NCBI GenBank assembly: GCA_964647565.1
Contig: CAZYIM010000015.1
Location: forward strand, 1 to 52,548
Reading direction: 5' to 3'
Length of the DNA stretch: 52,548 nucleotides
Origin: an uncultured Methanosarcinales archaeon
GTDB lineage: Archaea; Nanobdellota; Nanobdellia; Woesearchaeales; CAZYIM01
Of this stretch, positions 1 to 52,548 are shown piece by piece. The notes beneath the pieces were generated by a model, which was not told where the DNA came from, did not search any database, and worked only from the letters and a program-made list of their open reading frames with translations. Position 1 is the first letter of the stretch, and each line of letters begins with the position of its first letter. Position numbers and translations under genes: made by a program.

Positions 1-92
1 ATTTCCAGTAGATATCAAACAAACTGCCTCACAGCGTTCTGAACCCAGCTCACGAACCCTTTTAATGGGTGAACACCCCCACCCTTGGCCGC

Positions 93-122
93 CGACAGCG
101 AACAAAGCTTCGCTTCGTTCAA
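93..122 (-). other. 30-nt BHB-type intron in 23S rRNA (H91 loop, ~E. coli 2534)
   Basis: Removal restores archaeal consensus GGCCGUGCAGAAGCGGCC. Junction reads GCAG-AA|U ... CUGU-CG|G with central helix GCAG/CUGU and an internal hairpin UGAACGAAGC/GCUUUGUUCG. Confidence 0.85.
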
Positions 123-179
123 TTCTGCACGGCCAGGATAAGATGAGCCGACATCGATGTAGCAAGCCGCGCCGTCGAT

Positions 180-208
180 AAACCCGTAAATAGCTATTGC
201 TATCTACA
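180..208 (-). other. 29-nt BHB-type intron in 23S rRNA (H89 loop, ~E. coli 2477)
   Basis: Removal restores GAGAGCUCAUAUCGAC. Junction reads GCUC-AU|U ... GGGU-UU|A, with a 9-bp intron stem GUAGAUAGC/GCUAUUUAC. Confidence 0.88.
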
Positions 209-2845
209 ATGAGCTCTCGGGCGCGACAACTCTGTTATCCCCGGAGTAACTTTTTGGTCATCACTAGCCCCTATCAAGGAGGCATAGTGGTTCGCTAGGC
301 CAACATTTCTGTTTTGGATTTAATCTTGTTATAAATCCAATCAGGCTGACTTTTGCCCTTGCACTCTACACCGGATTTCTGACCCGGTTGAGTCAACCTT
401 TGGGCCCTGCTGATATTTTTTCAGCAGGGTGCCACCCCAGCCAAACTGTCCACCTACAACTGTCCTTTTCTAAAGAAAAGTAAGCAACATAAATTTCGAA
501 GAGTGGTGTTTCATTGATGTCTATTCACGATCTGGCGACCGTAACATAACAACTCCCACTTACGCTGCACAACAAAATTCATGCTACAATTATAAGCTAC
601 AGTAAAGTTTCACGGGGTCTTCACTTCCCACTGGAGATCTCTGGCTTTTGCACCAGAAAAGAGTGTTCGGTGGCTTCTAGTTGGGGACAGTGGAGATCTC
701 GTTACGCCATTCATGCAGGCCGTCATTCAAACGGCAAGGCATTTCGCTACCTTAAGAGAGTTATAGTTACCCCCGCCGTTTACCAGCTCTTAGGCCCCTT
801 GAAAAGGGCTTTAAAGTACTGGCACTGGGCAGACGTCACCAACTGTACGCACCTTTACAGGCTAGCAGTTAGTTAAGTTTTTGTTAAACAGTCGGACCCC
901 CCTTGTTATTGCACCCTGCAATAGCAACCATAAAGCAACTAATGCAGGGACCCCTTAAACCGAAGTTACAGGGCTAATTTGCCGAATTCCCTCAACTAGA
1001 TTATACCATCACACTTTAGGCTATTCACCTAGGGGCACCTGTGTCGGTTCTGGGTACGAACATTAAGAATATTTTTTATTTCCTTTTTCAAGGTCTCCAA
1101 GCATTAGCTAAATAAACCATAAAGTTTACTTATCCCAAGTTTAATCAAATTCTCATCATTATAATACTCCTTTGATTTATCTTGGTTAACACAAACGATG
1201 ATTTGTGTTAGCCTAGCCAGAAGAGTCAGAAAATAAACTTGCGTTGCCGCACATATCAAAATGGTACAGGAATATTAACCTGTTTCCCTTTCCCAAAAAA
1301 CCTATTAGGATATTGGTTAGGATCGACTAACCCTTGACTGATTTACATTGTCAAGGAACCCTTGCCCTTCCAGTGACAGAGATTCTCACTCTGCTAAGAT
1401 CCTACTACCGCCAGGATTTTCATTTTAATAAGGTCCACATCCTTTCACAAAAATGCTTCTATCCTCACTAAACGCCTACCTACTGTATTCTATTTAGAAA
1501 CCTATAGTATCGGTAATCAACTTAGCCCTGTCCATTTTCAAAGCCTACAACCTTGACGAGTAAGCTGTTACGCACTTATTATAGGATGGCTGCTTCTAAG
1601 CCAACCTCCTCGCTGTCTTTGGGTATAAACATTCTTCACCCTTTAACACTTAGTTGATATTTAGGGACCTTAACTATAGTTTGGGTTGTTCCCCTCTCGT
1701 GATTAGAGCTTACCCCTAACCACCGTTTCCCAGAGTCTTCAGCACTACAAAATTCGGAGTTGGACAAAAGACCGAACCCTTTCGGGCCCTAAATCCCTAA
1801 TCCGTATCTCTACATTAATAGTTGCCTAATCTGAGACTTGACTACGATCAAATTTGGTAGGAACCAGCTATCACCGAGCTCGATTGGCTTTTCACCCCTA
1901 GCCCCAGGTTAGAAGAACGCTTGTCCACAGCACCTCTGCAGGCCTCCACAAGATTTGACTCTTGCTTCACCTTACCCAGGGTTAGATCGCTCGGCTTCGG
2001 GTCATATTCAAATAACTAAGGCACATTAATACCTTTCTCATTGCAAAAGCTAAGAAAATTCGGTTTCCCTATGGATACTCTTTTTCAGATTATCCTCGCT
2101 ACTCAAATATACTCCCTGGCACGTTTTTCGAAACGCACGATAGAACTCCAAAGAGCACTATCCTTCCATAGTTATCAGGTTTCAGGATCTTTTAACTCTC
2201 TATTAAAAGTACTTTTCAACATTTCCTTCACAGTACTAGTACGCTATCGGACTCAAAGTGTATTTAATGTTAGAAGTTAATACCTCCCAAATTAGTGCTT
2301 CAAATCCAAGAAACACTACTCAAGATACTATCAAAATCCACTAAGTTACCTTTACAGGACTTTCACCCTCTAAGGTCCTTCATTCCAGAAGAGTTCAAGT
2401 TCCCTAGTTAGGATCAAAGATAGTCTTACAACACTACATTTTCTTCATGTTTCCACAAAGAATTCAGTTTGCATTACGCTGTTTTAAGTCGCTCTTACTA
2501 ACAGCATCTTATTTAATTTCTTTTCCTTCAGGTACTAAGACGTTTCAATTCCCTGAGTTACCCAACCTTAACGGTTTCAAGCTGATGTCAGATTCGGGAA
2601 TCTCTGGTTCAAAGTGTGCATACCACTCGCCAGAGCATATCGTAGTTAGCCACGCCCTTCATCAGCATTTGAGCCAAGTCATCCACCTGATAACATTTGC
2701 CTAAAATGTGATCTTGCCTATGCATGGTTTCATCAACAGGAATATAGGATGTATTCTGTCTTCACCCTTCATCCAATACCATCAGATATTGAATTGCTAA
2801 TAAAAATAATTTATAATAGTTTGTAATAGTAATTATGATTATAAA

Positions 2846-2965
2846 TGGACCCGTCGGGAAATTCAAGCCAAACAATAAAGTTCAAGCATTTTGAACCCGA
2901 GACCCCCGCCTCTCTTGTACAGAGTATTGCAAGGGCGGTATTCTACCAGACTAAACTACAGGCCC
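2846..2965 (-). tRNA. tRNA-Ala(UGC) in the 16S-23S spacer with two introns (37/38: 2912-2927; 59/60: 2860-2889)
   Basis: Acceptor GGGCCUG/CGGGUCC-A, anticodon arm CCGCC-CU-UGC-A, T arm UCGGG-UUCAAAU-CCCGA after intron removal. BHB helices CUUG/CAAG and UUCA/UGAA. Confidence 0.93.
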
Positions 2966-3021
2966 GTATGAAAATAAAATGAGTAAGAATAGATTGATCA
3001 TAAAAACTTATGAAAATAAAA

Positions 3022-4591
<1,570 letters not shown>

Positions 4592-4883
4592 TAGTTCCTA
4601 ATTTCTGAGCATTCAACAAGTTGAATACAACGGAAATTGTTAATCCTTACATTCGAAAGAATGCTTAGAATTATTTGTTCGGTCGCAATTAATATATTAT
4701 ATAGTTAAAGTATATTGACTTGATTTACCACATTCTTACTCATACTTGAAAGTCTATTTCAAGCATCAATTTTTGACAACATTAACTTTCGTTAATGTGG
4801 AGCTGATGTGTAAAGAATCACGTTTCGGACTCTTGCAGAATTGATGTATTCACATCAACCAATTTTTTAGGAAAAAATGGACG

Positions 4884-45772: not shown

Positions 45773-46156
45773 AGAAAATATGGGTCTCTGGGGACTGAAA
45801 GTTCTCAGAAATTCAACTCCTTTGAATTTGGTTCTTCGGAGTTGAATTCACCCGGACTGTTTCGAAACGCTTTTGCTTTCGAAACTCGAACAAAACGTAG
45901 TTTTGTGAAGATGTTCGAGTCCGTAGCATAGTCTGATGTCTATGCTGGCGTAAGCTTAAGAAAATATGGGCCTCTGGGAACTGAAAGTTCTCAGAAATTC
46001 AACTCCTTTGAATTTGGTTCTTCGGAGTTGAATTCACCCGGACTGTTTCGAAACGCTTTTGCTTTCGAAACTCGAACAAAACGTAGTTTTGTGAAGATGT
46101 TCGAGTCCGTAGCATAGTCTGATGTCTATGCTGGCGTAAGCTTAAGAAAATATGGG
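45773..46156 (-). repeat. 2x186-bp tandem repeat made of the tRNA-Val 3' end interrupted by hairpins
   Basis: Units 45773-45958 and 45959-46144 differ by 2 substitutions. The anchor agaaaatatggg recurs at 45773, 45959 and 46145. Confidence 0.93.
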
Positions 46157-46267
46157 CCCACCCGGACTCGAACCGGGGATCAATGCCTTTCATAAGCACA
46201 ATTTCTTATGCTCTGTAAGGGCACTGTCATAGCTTCTAGCCAATTAAGGTCACTAGACCATGGGCCC
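46153..46267 (-). tRNA. tRNA-Val(UAC) with two introns (D-loop 18/19: 46234-46250; 37/38: 46189-46213)
   Basis: Acceptor GGGCCCA/UGGGCCC-A, GUGCC-CU-UAC-A, CCCGG-UUCGAGU-CCGGG. BHB helix CUAG/CUAG in the D-arm. Confidence 0.93.
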
Positions 46268-46339
46268 ATAAGTGGTGACACGTAGCTTAGCGTGCACACT
46301 TATTCATAAAAGACTCCTATTTGCTTTAAATAGTTTTCT

Positions 46340-49366: not shown

Positions 49367-49807
49367 TCAATCATATACCTTTTCCTGTTTGCAGAGTTCC
49401 ATGGGTGGTGCGATTATATCTTTTATCTCAACATCATCAGGCGAGGCATTTATGTTTTCCATACCATTGACACTCATTCCCATTGGTGCAACCCACCTTT
49501 GGTATCGTTTGCTGCCACATTCACCATCTATGCAGAGCTTGTAGGTTAGGTGTAATGGGGCAGGTTCCTGGTTCTCAAGCCTAATCCAGGTCTGAGTCAC
49601 TCCATTTACTACTTTCTCTCTCTTTTCAAGGTGATAAGCTGGATTTTCCTTGGTTACACAGACTTCCTCATAATGGAAATTATCTTCTGTCCGGGGATCT
49701 TCACCGCCGCCTATACGCAGAAGAAATGAGAGTCCTGCGAGAACAAATATTCCTACTGCAACTATTACAAGAATCATCAAACCAGATATTTTTTTTTTCT
49801 TCACCAA
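49367..49807 (-). CDS. Hypothetical membrane-anchored protein
   Basis: Basic N-terminus, one TM, four Cys. GGTGA SD. Confidence 0.65.
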   Translation of the reverse strand: MVKKKKISGLMILVIVAVGIFVLAGLSFLLRIGGGEDPRTEDNFHYEEVCVTKENPAYHLEKREKVVNGVTQTWIRLENQEPAPLHLTYKLCIDGECGSKRYQRWVAPMGMSVNGMENINASPDDVEIKDIIAPPMELCKQEKVYD

Positions 49808-49913
49808 AACTAATCACCAATAGCTACGGGATAATAGGTTGTATTTATGTTTTTTGATAGCTTTAAGCACATCTCAGAAAGTTTTAAATAAAAACACCTC
49901 TCTCTGGTTTTAA

Positions 49914-51137
49914 ATGCTATTAGAAACTGTCTTCCTTTTATTGGCCGGCATCCTGTTCATAGGTGTGCTTGGAGAGGTTATTTTCAGGAAGACCAATATA
50001 CCTGACGTCATTTGGCTTCTTGTGATAGGTATCATCATTGGGCCTGTGCTTAACTGGACATCTTATCTTGCACTTAAGGATGTTGCACCATTCTTTACAA
50101 CATTTGCATTGATATTCTTGCTTTTCGAGGCAGGTATCAATATAGATATTCATGAATTTTTTCGAAGTGCTTCTAGAGGTATGCGATTGAGCATCAGCAG
50201 CTTTATCCTTTCAGCAGCAGTCACTTTCGGCATCTGCATGGCACTTGGTAAAGGTTTTATCATATCCTTGCTTGCAGGAACTATCCTGGCAGGAGTGTCG
50301 TCAGCTGTTGTCCTGCCTATCATCAACAACATGGAGATTTCCAAGAAGACCAAGATATCCCTTGTTTTTGATTCTGCCCTTTCAGATGTACTTTGCATTC
50401 TTGGAACTGTTACCCTTATAGAGATTTTTACTGCTGCAACTGCAATTGATAGCATGGGTGTGGCGAGAAATATGCTTTCATCTTTCTTAATACCTTTGGC
50501 CTTTGGAGGCTTTGCAGCCTTGTTATGGAACAAGATATTGCTTAAGCTTGAGAACCATCAATATATCCTAACTTTGGCTGTGATGCTTATTGTATATTCA
50601 CTATCCCAGATGTTTGGTGGTAATGGCGCAATTGCCTGCTTGATGTTTGGTTTGTTGTTAGGAAATTCAAAGAAAATTGTTGGATTGTTCAAGAAAGTCG
50701 AGCAAAAGAAGCATTCAATAACCCGTGCAGGCAGGGAAGCCTATTCGGAAGTTGCCTTTTTCATGAAGACATTTTTCTATGTATATCTGGGCATTTTGAT
50801 TAATTTCTCAGAACCCTTGAGCTTTGTTTGGGCTTGTCTGATCTTGTTGGGATTATACATGGTGCGTCCCTTGGCAGTATTTCTTTCGACACGAAAGGAT
50901 ACCCCTGTTTCCGAGGTCAAGATAATGGAAACTTTAATTCCTAAGGGTCTTGCAGCAGCTGTGCTAATACAGCTTCCAATAGAGGCTGGTATTCCTGGCG
51001 CAGAATCCCTTGTCAACATAACACTGGGAGTCATTCTGATCAGTATTGTTCTTTCTTCTGTTTTCATCTATTTTATCAAGCATGATTTCTACAAAGGAAT
51101 ATTTCCATTTCTACATAAAAAGTATTTGAAGAAATAA
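49914..51137 (+). CDS. Cation/H+ antiporter (CPA1, NhaP2-like)
   Basis: IPDVIWL..G...GP, LLFEAG, SSAVV.P, DSALSD, FFYVYLG and PKGLAAAVL motifs. Confidence 0.9.
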   Translation: MLLETVFLLLAGILFIGVLGEVIFRKTNIPDVIWLLVIGIIIGPVLNWTSYLALKDVAPFFTTFALIFLLFEAGINIDIHEFFRSASRGMRLSISSFILSAAVTFGICMALGKGFIISLLAGTILAGVSSAVVLPIINNMEISKKTKISLVFDSALSDVLCILGTVTLIEIFTAATAIDSMGVARNMLSSFLIPLAFGGFAALLWNKILLKLENHQYILTLAVMLIVYSLSQMFGGNGAIACLMFGLLLGNSKKIVGLFKKVEQKKHSITRAGREAYSEVAFFMKTFFYVYLGILINFSEPLSFVWACLILLGLYMVRPLAVFLSTRKDTPVSEVKIMETLIPKGLAAAVLIQLPIEAGIPGAESLVNITLGVILISIVLSSVFIYFIKHDFYKGIFPFLHKKYLKK

Positions 51138-51149
51138 GTGTGAAAATAT

Positions 51150-51968
51150 TCATTTTTTATTCATCAAAAAATTTTTAATATTTTCTAAAGATTCACTATT
51201 ATTTTCTTGATAGAATTTTAAAGGATTTAGTAAATTATTAAGGATTTGTTTTCTTTGTTTCAAGGTAGAGTTAGGCGGGCAAAAGCCAAATCGTATCCAA
51301 ATTTCAATTTTTGAATTATGCTTAGGATTTCTAAAACCTATTTTTTTAAGAAATTGTTCAACTCCTTTTATGGTGTCTATAATAATAGAATGTATGTGAT
51401 ACTCATTTTTTCTTTGTTGTATAGGTTTCTGTAATCTACAAGGTATTTCAATACCTTGCAACAATTCAAATACTTGACCAATTAACTGTTGAGAAATCGA
51501 TGCTAATTTTATTTTTGGTTTATAATGAAAGATAGTATATAAAGATCTTCTTTTTGTTTTATAGTTACTTTTACAGAAATAAATACTTCCGTCTGTATCA
51601 AAAAGACCTCTAATAAACGCCTTTATTTGACAGTTTGTTTTAATGATATCTGGAACTTCAACATGCAATTTCTTACCTTTTTTTAGATTATAATTATTTA
51701 AAAGAAACTTGACAAATTCTTTATCAAAAAGAAAAATACCACAAACACCCGTTGAGTTATATTTTTTAATAACAGTAGGGATCTTTAATTGAATTTTAAA
51801 TATCTTATTGAATGAGGGACATATGATTTTGTTATAGAACTCGATTTCTTCTGTAATATCCCCTGTGAGTGTAAATTCTGAATATCTTTCATTAATACTA
51901 ATACATCCGTCACCAATATGCCATCCCAGAAATTCAGAAATTTTAATTGGTTTTTTCATTAAACTCAT
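51150..51968 (-). mobile_element. Free-standing double-motif LAGLIDADG (DOD/intein-type) homing endonuclease gene
   Basis: EFLGWHIGDGCI and AFIRGLFDTDGSI motifs, and FLKKIGF.NPKH. Noticeably AT-rich. No intein splicing termini. GGAGGTG SD. Confidence 0.9.
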
Positions 51969-52158
51969 TTTTTACACCTCCTAAGTATTATTAGATGTTT
52001 ACTTAGGAAATCTTATTATGATAATAACTTAGTAAATGTGTTTTGTTGGTAAGCAAAAGATATATTTGTATGTTTTATAGACCTCATCAAATAGAAAAAT
52101 GAGGTTTAAATATATTTAGTGAAAATTTTCGGAGAATTTAATTAAAAATTGAAAAAAA

Positions 52159-52346
52159 TGCGAGGGAGGGGACTTTCAAATCCTGAAGGAGAGTTGTAGT
52201 CTTCCTCTGGGATATTCGAACCCCTGGATCCACTAAGGAACAGGATTTCTTCCTGATGTGGTGTAACTTGAATGTTACTCATCTGGTCTTAAGTTTCGCA
52301 AAGATATTTCTTTCCTGCGCATTTGACCAGACTCTGCAACCCTCGC
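52159..52346 (-). tRNA. tRNA-Leu(UAA) with three introns (30/31: 52295-52313; 37/38: 52247-52287; 59/60: 52173-52214)
   Basis: Acceptor GCGAGGG/CCCUCGC-A. After splicing: CAGGA-CU-UAA-GA-UCCUG, variable arm, AGGGG-UUCGAAU-CCCCU. BHB helices CGCA/UGCG and UUCG/UGAA. Confidence 0.92.
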
Positions 52347-52548
52347 ATTAGTTTAAAATGGTTTTATATATTTTTAAAAAGCTTTCTCTTTCGGGCTTGC
52401 ATAGTATACATTTTTCAATCATCTACGCATTAATATATCAGTGTACAAATTACTACAAAAATTAGTCAGTATACGCATACCTACATTAATGTAGTAAAAT
52501 AGTAACATTTATATATAAGTACCTCTTAAGTATAGTCACTATATTGTT

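Follow-up and report, generated by a model that had tools for sequence, protein, structure and literature searches.

Why should a free-standing homing endonuclease gene lie next to a transfer RNA (tRNA) gene that is interrupted by three introns, each too small to encode a protein? The question is raised by a locus near the end of a 52,548-nucleotide (nt) stretch of DNA, called the window throughout, which comprises positions 1 to 52,548 of contig CAZYIM010000015.1 (C15) of assembly GCA_964647565.1, the genome (G000) of an uncultured archaeon placed by GTDB in the Woesearchaeales. The gene in question encodes a LAGLIDADG nuclease, and it follows, on the same strand, a gene for tRNA-Leu(UAA) with introns between tRNA positions 30 and 31, 37 and 38, and 59 and 60. 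The clade of nucleases to which it belongs is faithful to tRNA-Leu(UAA), relatives of the gene are gained and lost as single genes, and members of the clade avoid tRNA genes with an unbroken consensus anticodon arm. It is quite possible, although the idea is put forward tentatively, that the enzyme is a homing endonuclease directed at tRNA-Leu, with the 30/31 and 37/38 introns probably conferring immunity at the target site and being co-converted with the nuclease gene.

A nuclease clade tied to tRNA-Leu(UAA)

The surroundings of related nucleases were compared in the best 80 of 390 loci from 185,579 species genomes. All phylum-level names among these 80 loci are DPANN archaeal, the remaining names being three 'uncultured Methanosarcinales', one 'Patescibacteria group' and seven merely 'archaeon'; both the homologues and the related loci of the window nuclease bear Woesearchaeota-like DPANN names. 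ARAGORN, run with its linear flag -l (without this flag it under-called, giving 20 adjacent tRNAs rather than 61), detects 85 tRNAs in the 80 loci, and 66 of these are no more than 300 nt away from the nuclease gene, as opposed to 16.9 under random placement. A tRNA is found within this distance in 61 of the 80 loci. In 49 loci the nearest tRNA follows the nuclease gene directly on the same strand; it is no more than 100 nt away in 56, and at most 5 nt away or overlapping in 20; most of the nuclease genes lie 0-70 nt from the 5' end of the tRNA. Introns are called by ARAGORN in 30 of the 61 adjacent tRNAs and in 3 of the 19 farther ones, a suggestive excess that is confounded by tRNA type.

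A tree built from 99 nuclease proteins implies 31 changes of partner tRNA, as against 47-54 in 200 label shuffles, and different clades follow His(GUG), Arg(UCG), Leu(CAA), Gln and other tRNAs. The family is DPANN-wide in this sample, and each of its clades is tied to one tRNA gene. The partner of the 34-row clade that includes the window protein is tRNA-Leu(UAA); this clade has a support of 96 in the Shimodaira-Hasegawa-like approximate likelihood ratio test (SH-aLRT). In most loci of the window's own 17-row subclade the nuclease gene lies 100-190 nt downstream of the tRNA, the exceptions being three loci in which it is divergent on the 5' side of the tRNA (L016, L017 and L148) and two in which it is upstream and co-oriented (L154 and L261). 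Since side, strand and distance vary while tRNA-Leu(UAA) remains constant, it is the body of the tRNA rather than its flank that is indicated as the object of this fidelity. Both the 30/31 and the 37/38 introns are present in all 15 readable members of the subclade (L150 is cut off at a contig end).

Introns and the unbroken anticodon arm

The relationship between the nuclease and the introns was followed in 201 genomes of the same class as G000 with a pattern that is blind to introns (GCAGG, 0-30 nt, ACTTAAG, 0-30 or 31-61 nt, ATCCTGT). This pattern scan replaced a BLAST search with an intron-less tRNA query, which was biased to intron-less genes and missed the gene in the window. The reversed pattern, used as a control over the same genomes, gave 0 matches. 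After removal of three duplicate loci and one spurious row (L239), and with two low-scoring loci (L219 and L222) classed from their matched strings, the scan yielded 104 tRNA-Leu(UAA) genes outside G000. A LAGLIDADG gene lies at most 100 nt from 5 of these 104 genes, in five different families, with one of the five being a weak profile match (E 2e-4). The 30/31 intron is present in 13 of the genes, 4 of which have an adjacent nuclease, and absent from 91, 1 of which has an adjacent nuclease (Fisher's test, 7e-4, uncorrected for relatedness). No link to the nuclease is seen for the 59/60 intron.

A second test concerns a specific piece of the tRNA gene. In an alignment of 38 tRNA-Leu(UAA) genes, the longest segment shared by at least 90% of them is a 19-nt block, GCAGGACTTAAGATCCTGT, and LAGLIDADG enzymes have target sites of about 20 bp. 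Both of the introns that are conserved in the window's subclade fall within this block, and in the window they split it into segments of 5, 7 and 7 nt. The block is unbroken in 43 of the 99 genes of the class scan that have no adjacent nuclease, in 0 of the 5 that have one, and in 0 of 26 genes with consensus exons that are linked to the Leu(UAA) nuclease clade. These 26 were drawn from 33 loci of that clade, chosen through the nuclease rather than the tRNA, and each of them has one or two introns within the block. As to the other 7 loci, the arm is variant in six (L019, L024, L025, L027, L029 and L066), and L150 is the truncated locus mentioned above. Two of the six, L025 and L029, are the two linked genes that are full-length and intron-less, and their anticodon stems are changed. 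The difference between the clade (0 of 26) and unlinked genes (43 of 99) gives a Fisher value of 4e-6, again uncorrected for relatedness. Avoidance of the unbroken block would follow from recognition of the anticodon arm by an enzyme that is incompatible with an intact site.

The nuclease gene and the three-intron tRNA gene

The features of the locus are collected in Table 1.

Table 1. Features of the nuclease and tRNA-Leu(UAA) locus, in window positions
Feature	Positions	Strand	Remarks
LAGLIDADG homing endonuclease gene, free-standing	51150..51968	-	272-amino-acid open reading frame (ORF), ATG start, LAGLIDADG_3 match
Shine-Dalgarno-like GGAGGTG	51975..51981	-	6 bases 5' of the nuclease ATG; read from the sequence
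Seven-T run, likely archaeal tRNA terminator	52152..52158	-	Directly 3' of the discriminator base
tRNA-Leu(UAA) gene, 188 nt, 4 exons and 3 introns	52159..52346	-	ARAGORN on the spliced sequence
Intron 3, 42 nt, 59/60, T loop, non-canonical	52173..52214	-	Outer helix is the T stem; central helix TTCG/TGAA
Intron 2, 41 nt, 37/38, canonical	52247..52287	-	Relaxed motif; pairing read by hand
Intron 1, 19 nt, 30/31, anticodon stem, non-canonical	52295..52313	-	Central helix CGCA/TGCG, 3' bulge AA
A/T-rich TATA-like box, putative promoter	52362..52378	-	About 16-32 nt 5' of tRNA position 1

The nuclease ORF is preceded immediately 5' of its ATG by a stop codon, so that the stop-to-stop frame is 273 codons and the nuclease is not part of a larger protein or intein. 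An Rfam scan of the nuclease/tRNA locus gave no group I intron or other family at or above the gathering score. An intein-borne or intron-borne reading was rejected for the window on these grounds and in view of the ordinary neighbouring genes. The protein matches Pfam LAGLIDADG_3 (PF14528) with an E value of 3.5e-8 and is of the two-motif, single-chain type, with motif 1 at about G19-D20-G21 and motif 2 at about G121 to D126-G127. In all 40 aligned family members G19-D20-G21 and D126-G127, which are the ends of the LAGLIDADG motifs, are invariant. The positions of D20 and D126 are presumably the catalytic ones, as in I-CreI and I-DmoI. There are 114 homologues in the protein collection, the best of which matches 90% of the query at 64% identity; about 60 share 48-64% identity and have a length of about 270 amino acids, and those with names are Woesearchaeota or Nanoarchaeota proteins.

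The AlphaFold model of the nuclease (predicted local distance difference test score, pLDDT, 94.7; predicted template modelling score, pTM, 0.92) has the pseudo-dimeric alpha-beta-beta-alpha-beta-beta-alpha fold. Its top Foldseek matches are I-Tsp061I (E 4.6e-9), PI-PfuI (1.4e-8) and I-DmoI (6.5e-8), and a profile search of the PDB with the protein finds 1dq3 at 1.7e-6. A C-terminal helical extension of about 55 amino acids, seen both in the alignment and in the model, is conserved across the nuclease clade. The ORF is intact and carries both of the predicted catalytic aspartates, and it is probably a selfish, single-chain LAGLIDADG homing endonuclease gene whose product is predicted to be active. 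Its 3' end is separated by 12 nt from the stop codon of the neighbouring gene, which is convergent and encodes a Na+/H+ exchanger (Pfam E 2.3e-34).

The tRNA gene is not apparent to standard tools, the intact sequence being missed by ARAGORN and, at gathering score, by Rfam. Removal of 19, 41 and 42 nt leaves an 86-nt sequence that ARAGORN folds into a clean cloverleaf and calls as tRNA-Leu(taa); the sequence can be aligned with 38 other tRNA-Leu(UAA) genes and has the long variable arm. Nothing else in the genome matches the tRNA-Leu(UAA) pattern, and this fact, together with the regular product, argues indirectly that the introns are removed. The spacer of 190 nt from the 3' end of the tRNA (52159) to the nuclease ATG (51968) is A/T-rich. 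Archaeal transcription terminates at oligo-T runs, which is the basis for the terminator entered in Table 1, and TTTATAAA boxes comparable to the TATA-like box of the window stand upstream of tRNA-Leu(UAA) in relatives.

A motif of the bulge-helix-bulge (BHB) type consists of two 3-nt bulges around a 4-bp helix, with the splice sites in the bulges, and the registers given here follow that general form. The central helix of intron 1 forms all four of its pairs within such a motif, and it covaries over 34 distinct alleles, 33 from the stored loci and the window's own: CGCA/TGCG is found in 17, GGCA/TGCC in 6, GGCA/TGCT in 5, AGCA/TGCT in 4, and CGCA/TGTG and CGCA/GGCG in 1 each, while the AA bulge is constant in all 34. 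Intron 2 is less regular, since its central helix CTTA/GAAG pairs at three of four positions; its inner helix, CCAGATG/CATCAGG, has one mismatch. In intron 3 all four central pairs form, including one G-U, and the T stem closes the motif in a minimum-energy fold of the intron and its flanks (-19.5 kcal/mol).

The sequence-only reading had described the locus as a two-motif LAGLIDADG gene with its own Shine-Dalgarno sequence, some 190 nt downstream of tRNA-Leu(UAA) and co-oriented with it, outside any intron or intein, and had taken the tRNA to hold three BHB introns too small for a gene. This description stands, given the agreement of the coordinates, the Pfam match, the invariant motifs, the stop codon directly before the ATG and the cloverleaf of the spliced tRNA.

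Gain and loss of the nuclease gene in relatives

The 40 nearest genomes are of the same order as G000 and all belong to other families. A homologue of the nuclease is present in 13 of the 41 same-order genomes (G000 included), and the best outside G000 is 40% identical. (The sequencing runs listed for the stretch comprise eight of DNA and none of RNA; contigs from four DNA runs over 50900..52548 are fragmentary, and no piece among them bridges the locus with or without the nuclease; nothing was concluded from three low-support joints, side 26-33, which possibly come from other organisms.) The mobility of the nuclease is seen at conserved sites in relatives, as the presence or absence of a single gene, and not at the window's own locus.

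One such event is seen in genus g109, in which the nuclease is found in G163 and is absent from G220 and G107. The G163 locus (L222, 770-1566) differs from that of G220 (L221, 1534-1590) by about 760 extra nt that comprise a single nuclease gene. In G163 this gene sits between a 35-nt segment with a TTTATAAA box and the start of tRNA-Leu(UAA); in G220 the same segment (97% identical) stands directly before the tRNA. The 3' end of the G163 nuclease gene supplies a second TTTATAAA box before the tRNA. The nuclease gene appears to take over the promoter of the tRNA and to bring a replacement with it. A second comparison also involves two genomes of one genus. G151 has a nuclease gene and two introns, in the D arm and at 30/31. 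In G062 the tRNA gene has almost the same exons and lacks introns, and the 316 nt available upstream contain no nuclease gene.

A possible mechanism and its alternatives

The mechanism proposed for these observations would begin with cleavage, by the nuclease, of nuclease-free tRNA-Leu(UAA) alleles inside the 19-bp anticodon-arm block. Repair would then copy the nuclease gene and the neighbouring tRNA allele together, in a co-conversion. The 30/31 and 37/38 introns would split the block and so protect the carrier chromosome, and the splicing endonuclease of the host would remove them from the RNA. Introns of this kind would ride with the nuclease gene and could outlive its loss by decay or deletion. 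The whole would amount to an archaeal, protein-spliced counterpart of the 'collaborative homing' of phages.

A different account, which is possible and deserves to be weighed with care, also has a homing endonuclease at the tRNA locus but places its target in the flank or at the edge of the tRNA, leaving the introns as linked bystanders. Immunity would then come from the insertion itself or from point changes, and the introns would be features of a host with a permissive splicing endonuclease, associated with the nuclease through co-conversion, through shared descent of a tRNA-plus-nuclease module, or through lineage effects. The position of most of the nuclease genes, 0-70 nt from the 5' end of a tRNA, suits this account, as insertion there could itself split a target.

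A number of observations speak against immunity through introns, and several of them favour the view of linked bystanders. First, introns persist where there is no nuclease: 9 of the 13 genes with the 30/31 intron have none nearby, and in genus g109 the G220 gene has a 37/38 intron identical to that of G163 and a related 30/31 intron, with the introns of G107 at the same positions. In this genus the introns are alike with or without the nuclease, and its gain or loss has left them unaltered. Second, other nuclease clades adjoin uninterrupted tRNAs, which are intron-less in all 9 loci of the His-linked clade and in 6 of the 7 Arg(UCG)-linked loci, and even two genes of the Leu(UAA) clade (L025 and L029) lack introns. 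Third, introns are far more widespread than nucleases in G000, where 17 of the 18 tRNAs detected by ARAGORN are interrupted and there are 3 LAGLIDADG genes. No LAGLIDADG gene lies on the contigs of its three-intron tRNA-Arg(UCG) or its two-intron tRNA-Glu(UUC). The 59/60 intron likewise occurs in nuclease-free genes, for example L125 and L128.

Other objections concern the block test and the statistics. The 37/38 intron, which is enough by itself to break the block, occurs in 47 of the 99 nuclease-free genes, and the need for an additional 30/31 intron is consequently left unexplained. Inside the class scan alone, the block test (0 of 5 versus 43 of 99) gives a p value of 0.075. Moreover, the linked loci are related; they may go back to only a few independent events, and three pairs among them are near-duplicates. 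The uncorrected p values quoted above thus overstate the case. Informative sister comparisons number only two (G151 with G062, and G232 with G142 in family f47), and one is neutral.

On the other side, three findings are difficult for the view that the introns are bystanders. The clade retains tRNA-Leu(UAA) through changes of side, strand and distance, which points to the body of the tRNA and not to a flank. The block is unbroken in none of the 26 linked genes with consensus exons, as opposed to 43 of the 99 unlinked ones. Finally, the two linked genes that lack introns have altered anticodon stems.

A further alternative is that the protein has been domesticated, as a DNA-binding regulator like WhiA or as an RNA maturase of LAGLIDADG fold, and is now inherited vertically and immobile beside tRNA-Leu. 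The many clusters at 48-64% identity, the constant length of about 270 amino acids and the conserved C-terminal extension would fit such a role, and WhiA is among the fold matches, at rank 22. This alternative is nevertheless improbable and fits poorly, given that both catalytic aspartates are invariant, that the gene is patchily distributed (in 13 of 41 same-order genomes, and adjacent at 5 of 104 tRNA-Leu(UAA) loci) with presence and absence within genera, that side and strand change within the clade, and that the fold is matched best by homing endonucleases of archaea that are active.

The idea that the nuclease is cargo of an integrated plasmid or virus using the tRNA gene as its attachment site, for which an integrase-N-terminal-like ORF and a VirB4-like ATPase next to another nuclease-bearing tRNA of the genome (on contig C33; names read from translations only) could be cited, also fits poorly, is very improbable, and was rejected for the window, where the neighbours are the Na+/H+ exchanger gene and, past the tRNA, ordinary chromosomal ORFs, where no integrase-like ORF was seen by eye in the translations of 49500..52548 or in the first 60 residues of the ORFs at 52000..59186 of C15 (in both cases without a family search), and whose relatives G163 and G220 differ by a single-gene stretch of about 760 nt, with nuclease clades that track tRNA identity.

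Returning to immunity through the 30/31 and 37/38 introns, the evidence bears unevenly on what the sequence-only reading had expected. It had looked for an enrichment of non-canonical introns beside nuclease genes, which is found for the 30/31 intron and not for the 59/60 intron. The linked tRNAs with consensus exons are interrupted in the Leu(UAA) clade, and those beside the His and Arg nucleases are mostly intron-less. The anticipated joint absence of nuclease and introns in sister strains is seen when G062 is compared with G151, and it is contradicted by G220 and G107, whose introns are unchanged relative to those of G163. Its suggestion that introns spread with the nuclease gains from the skewed distribution of the 30/31 intron (4 of 13 versus 1 of 91) and from the G151/G062 pair, and loses from the 9 of 13 intron-bearing genes without a nuclease and from genus g109. 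The idea that the nuclease could explain the accumulation of introns does not hold for the lineage as a whole: three nuclease genes cannot account for it when 17 of 18 tRNAs are interrupted and tRNAs with several introns occur without a nuclease. The 59/60 intron and most of the other introns of G000 fall outside the proposed mechanism.

Whether the proposal extends beyond this one tRNA is more doubtful. In its general form, small BHB introns of tRNA genes would be kept, and moved between lineages, by breaking LAGLIDADG target sites, with the nuclease gene and the split allele behaving as one unit. If true, this would explain by a concrete mechanism how non-canonical tRNA introns arrive and persist in DPANN archaea. 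The explicit putative target, the 19-bp block of the anticodon arm, makes the idea directly testable, and the nuclease family is a reservoir of natural meganucleases whose putative targets in tRNA genes are conserved.

Relation to known systems

Known cases of collaborative homing are F-CphI, which lies beside the ORF-less psbA group I intron of cyanophage S-PM2, and T4 mobE with the I-TevIII intron. The term is used here as a passage of PMC3984707 defines it. The locus in the window resembles such systems in having a free-standing nuclease gene beside a gene with an ORF-less intron; as proposed here, it would also resemble them in that the target is the intron site of the uninterrupted allele and that the intron protects and is co-converted. 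It differs in that its introns are BHB micro-introns of 19-42 nt, spliced by host proteins rather than self-splicing, and in that a chromosomal archaeal tRNA gene, a LAGLIDADG nuclease and two introns in one putative site are involved. Unlike the phage examples, it is known from sequence alone. The combination of a free-standing homing endonuclease with a protective intron is already known, and what would be new is its occurrence with protein-spliced archaeal micro-introns in a chromosomal tRNA gene.

Free-standing endonucleases of phage T4 (SegB and the other Seg/Mob enzymes) are also responsible for 'intronless homing'. SegB acts in the T4 tRNA region, where it adjoins tRNA genes and promotes the inheritance of itself and of the adjacent tRNA region. 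However, SegB is a GIY-YIG enzyme of a phage and has no introns associated with it, whereas the family described here is LAGLIDADG, cellular, limited to DPANN in the sample, and divided into clades with one tRNA each.

Enzymes of the I-DmoI, I-Tsp061I and I-PorI type share with the window nuclease the fold (they are its best structural matches), the host domain and the BHB splicing system. Their genes lie within the rRNA introns that they mobilise, in contrast to that of the window, which is outside introns and beside a tRNA. Archaeal rRNA introns that contain LAGLIDADG genes include group I introns in rRNA genes of DPANN archaea. In the text of PMC6125680, which treats archaeal rRNA group I introns, the term 'free-standing' does not occur, and the 'tRNA intron' passages treat intron types generally. 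Descriptions of LAGLIDADG genes beside archaeal tRNA genes were not found in the titles and abstract openings searched, a set in which subscription journals are mostly not included. A relative in a Candidatus Micrarchaeota metagenome-assembled contig (L055, 3888-4742) does, unlike the window nuclease, lie within a tRNA gene. Here an ORF of the nuclease family occupies a 761-nt insert, over which acceptor halves GCCTCCG and CGGAGGC close; the D arm and T arm are regular, and the insert is bracketed by a 10-bp inverted repeat, GCGCAGAAGC / GCTTCTGCGC. The identity that ARAGORN assigns to this tRNA, Leu(cag), is doubtful.

Genes for tRNAs with several and non-canonical introns are known from Thermoproteales, ARMAN/DPANN and Asgard archaea, and the window gene is like them in its introns at 30/31, 37/38 and 59/60 with BHB motifs for their predicted removal. 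Of the introns in Asgard tRNAs a preprint says that 'how they arrive remains open' (bioRxiv 10.64898/2026.10.13.758758); the words 'homing', 'LAGLIDADG' and 'DPANN' do not appear in its text. The window gene differs in that the non-canonical 30/31 intron of tRNA-Leu(UAA) is statistically tied to an adjoining homing endonuclease gene. The intron-blind scan, the unbroken-block test and the covariation of the 30/31 helix were added in this analysis.

Other nuclease genes and interrupted tRNAs

The G000 assembly comprises 2.68 Mb in 86 contigs, with a completeness of 87% and a contamination of 1.85%. This size is unusual, as 40 genomes of the same order span 0.6-2.1 Mb. Contig C15 itself continues to position 59186, with a run of N just beyond the end of the window. 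Only three LAGLIDADG genes are found in the genome, with agreement between Pfam and the family profile, and all three abut tRNA genes, an adjacency greater than expected by chance. Besides the gene in the window, there is one on C51, whose stop codon adjoins the 3' end of tRNA-Met(CAU), a convergent gene with an A1-U72 pair and two intervening sequences, and one on C33, which runs with its last codons into the 5' end of a tRNA that contains an intron and is of uncertain identity (L003 1438-3243, corresponding to C33:26206-28011). Past the C33 tRNA lie an integrase-N-terminal-like ORF with a scrambled C-terminus and a VirB4-like ATPase (assignments read from the translations, with no family search), and an integrated element may be present at the same tRNA.

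Another arrangement is seen in L080, where a LAGLIDADG ORF (3827-4680) has an intron-less tRNA-Leu(UAA) 86 nt upstream of it and a tRNA-Thr(GGU) on its other side, the nuclease stop codon falling in the D loop of the latter. This nuclease is outside the Leu(UAA) clade, and its nearest relatives with labelled partners are linked to Gln and Leu(CAA/CAG).

Multi-intron structure accounts for the failure of standard tRNA finders to detect some genes in these genomes. A census of hidden tRNAs in G000, based on 33 reference anticodons, recovered 15 genes, which serve as examples and are an incomplete count. Among them are the tRNA-Arg(UCG) with three introns (C2:4323-4478, minus strand) and the tRNA-Glu(UUC) with two (C48:14579-14721, plus strand) mentioned above, both recognised through a spliced alignment and confirmed when ARAGORN was run on the sequences with their introns removed. 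Within the window, ARAGORN reports an interrupted tRNA-Thr(tgt) at 46152-46268 (minus strand; 16 bits with Rfam), with a 41-nt insert at the unusual position 28 and no adjoining nuclease gene. The window also contains an rRNA operon (1-4591, minus strand), with the 16S gene at 3022-4591 and the 23S gene, cut by the start of the window, at 1-2710. In the spacer of this operon a weak, sub-gathering tRNA-like match (2892-2965, minus strand, 21.9 bits) is possibly an interrupted spacer tRNA.

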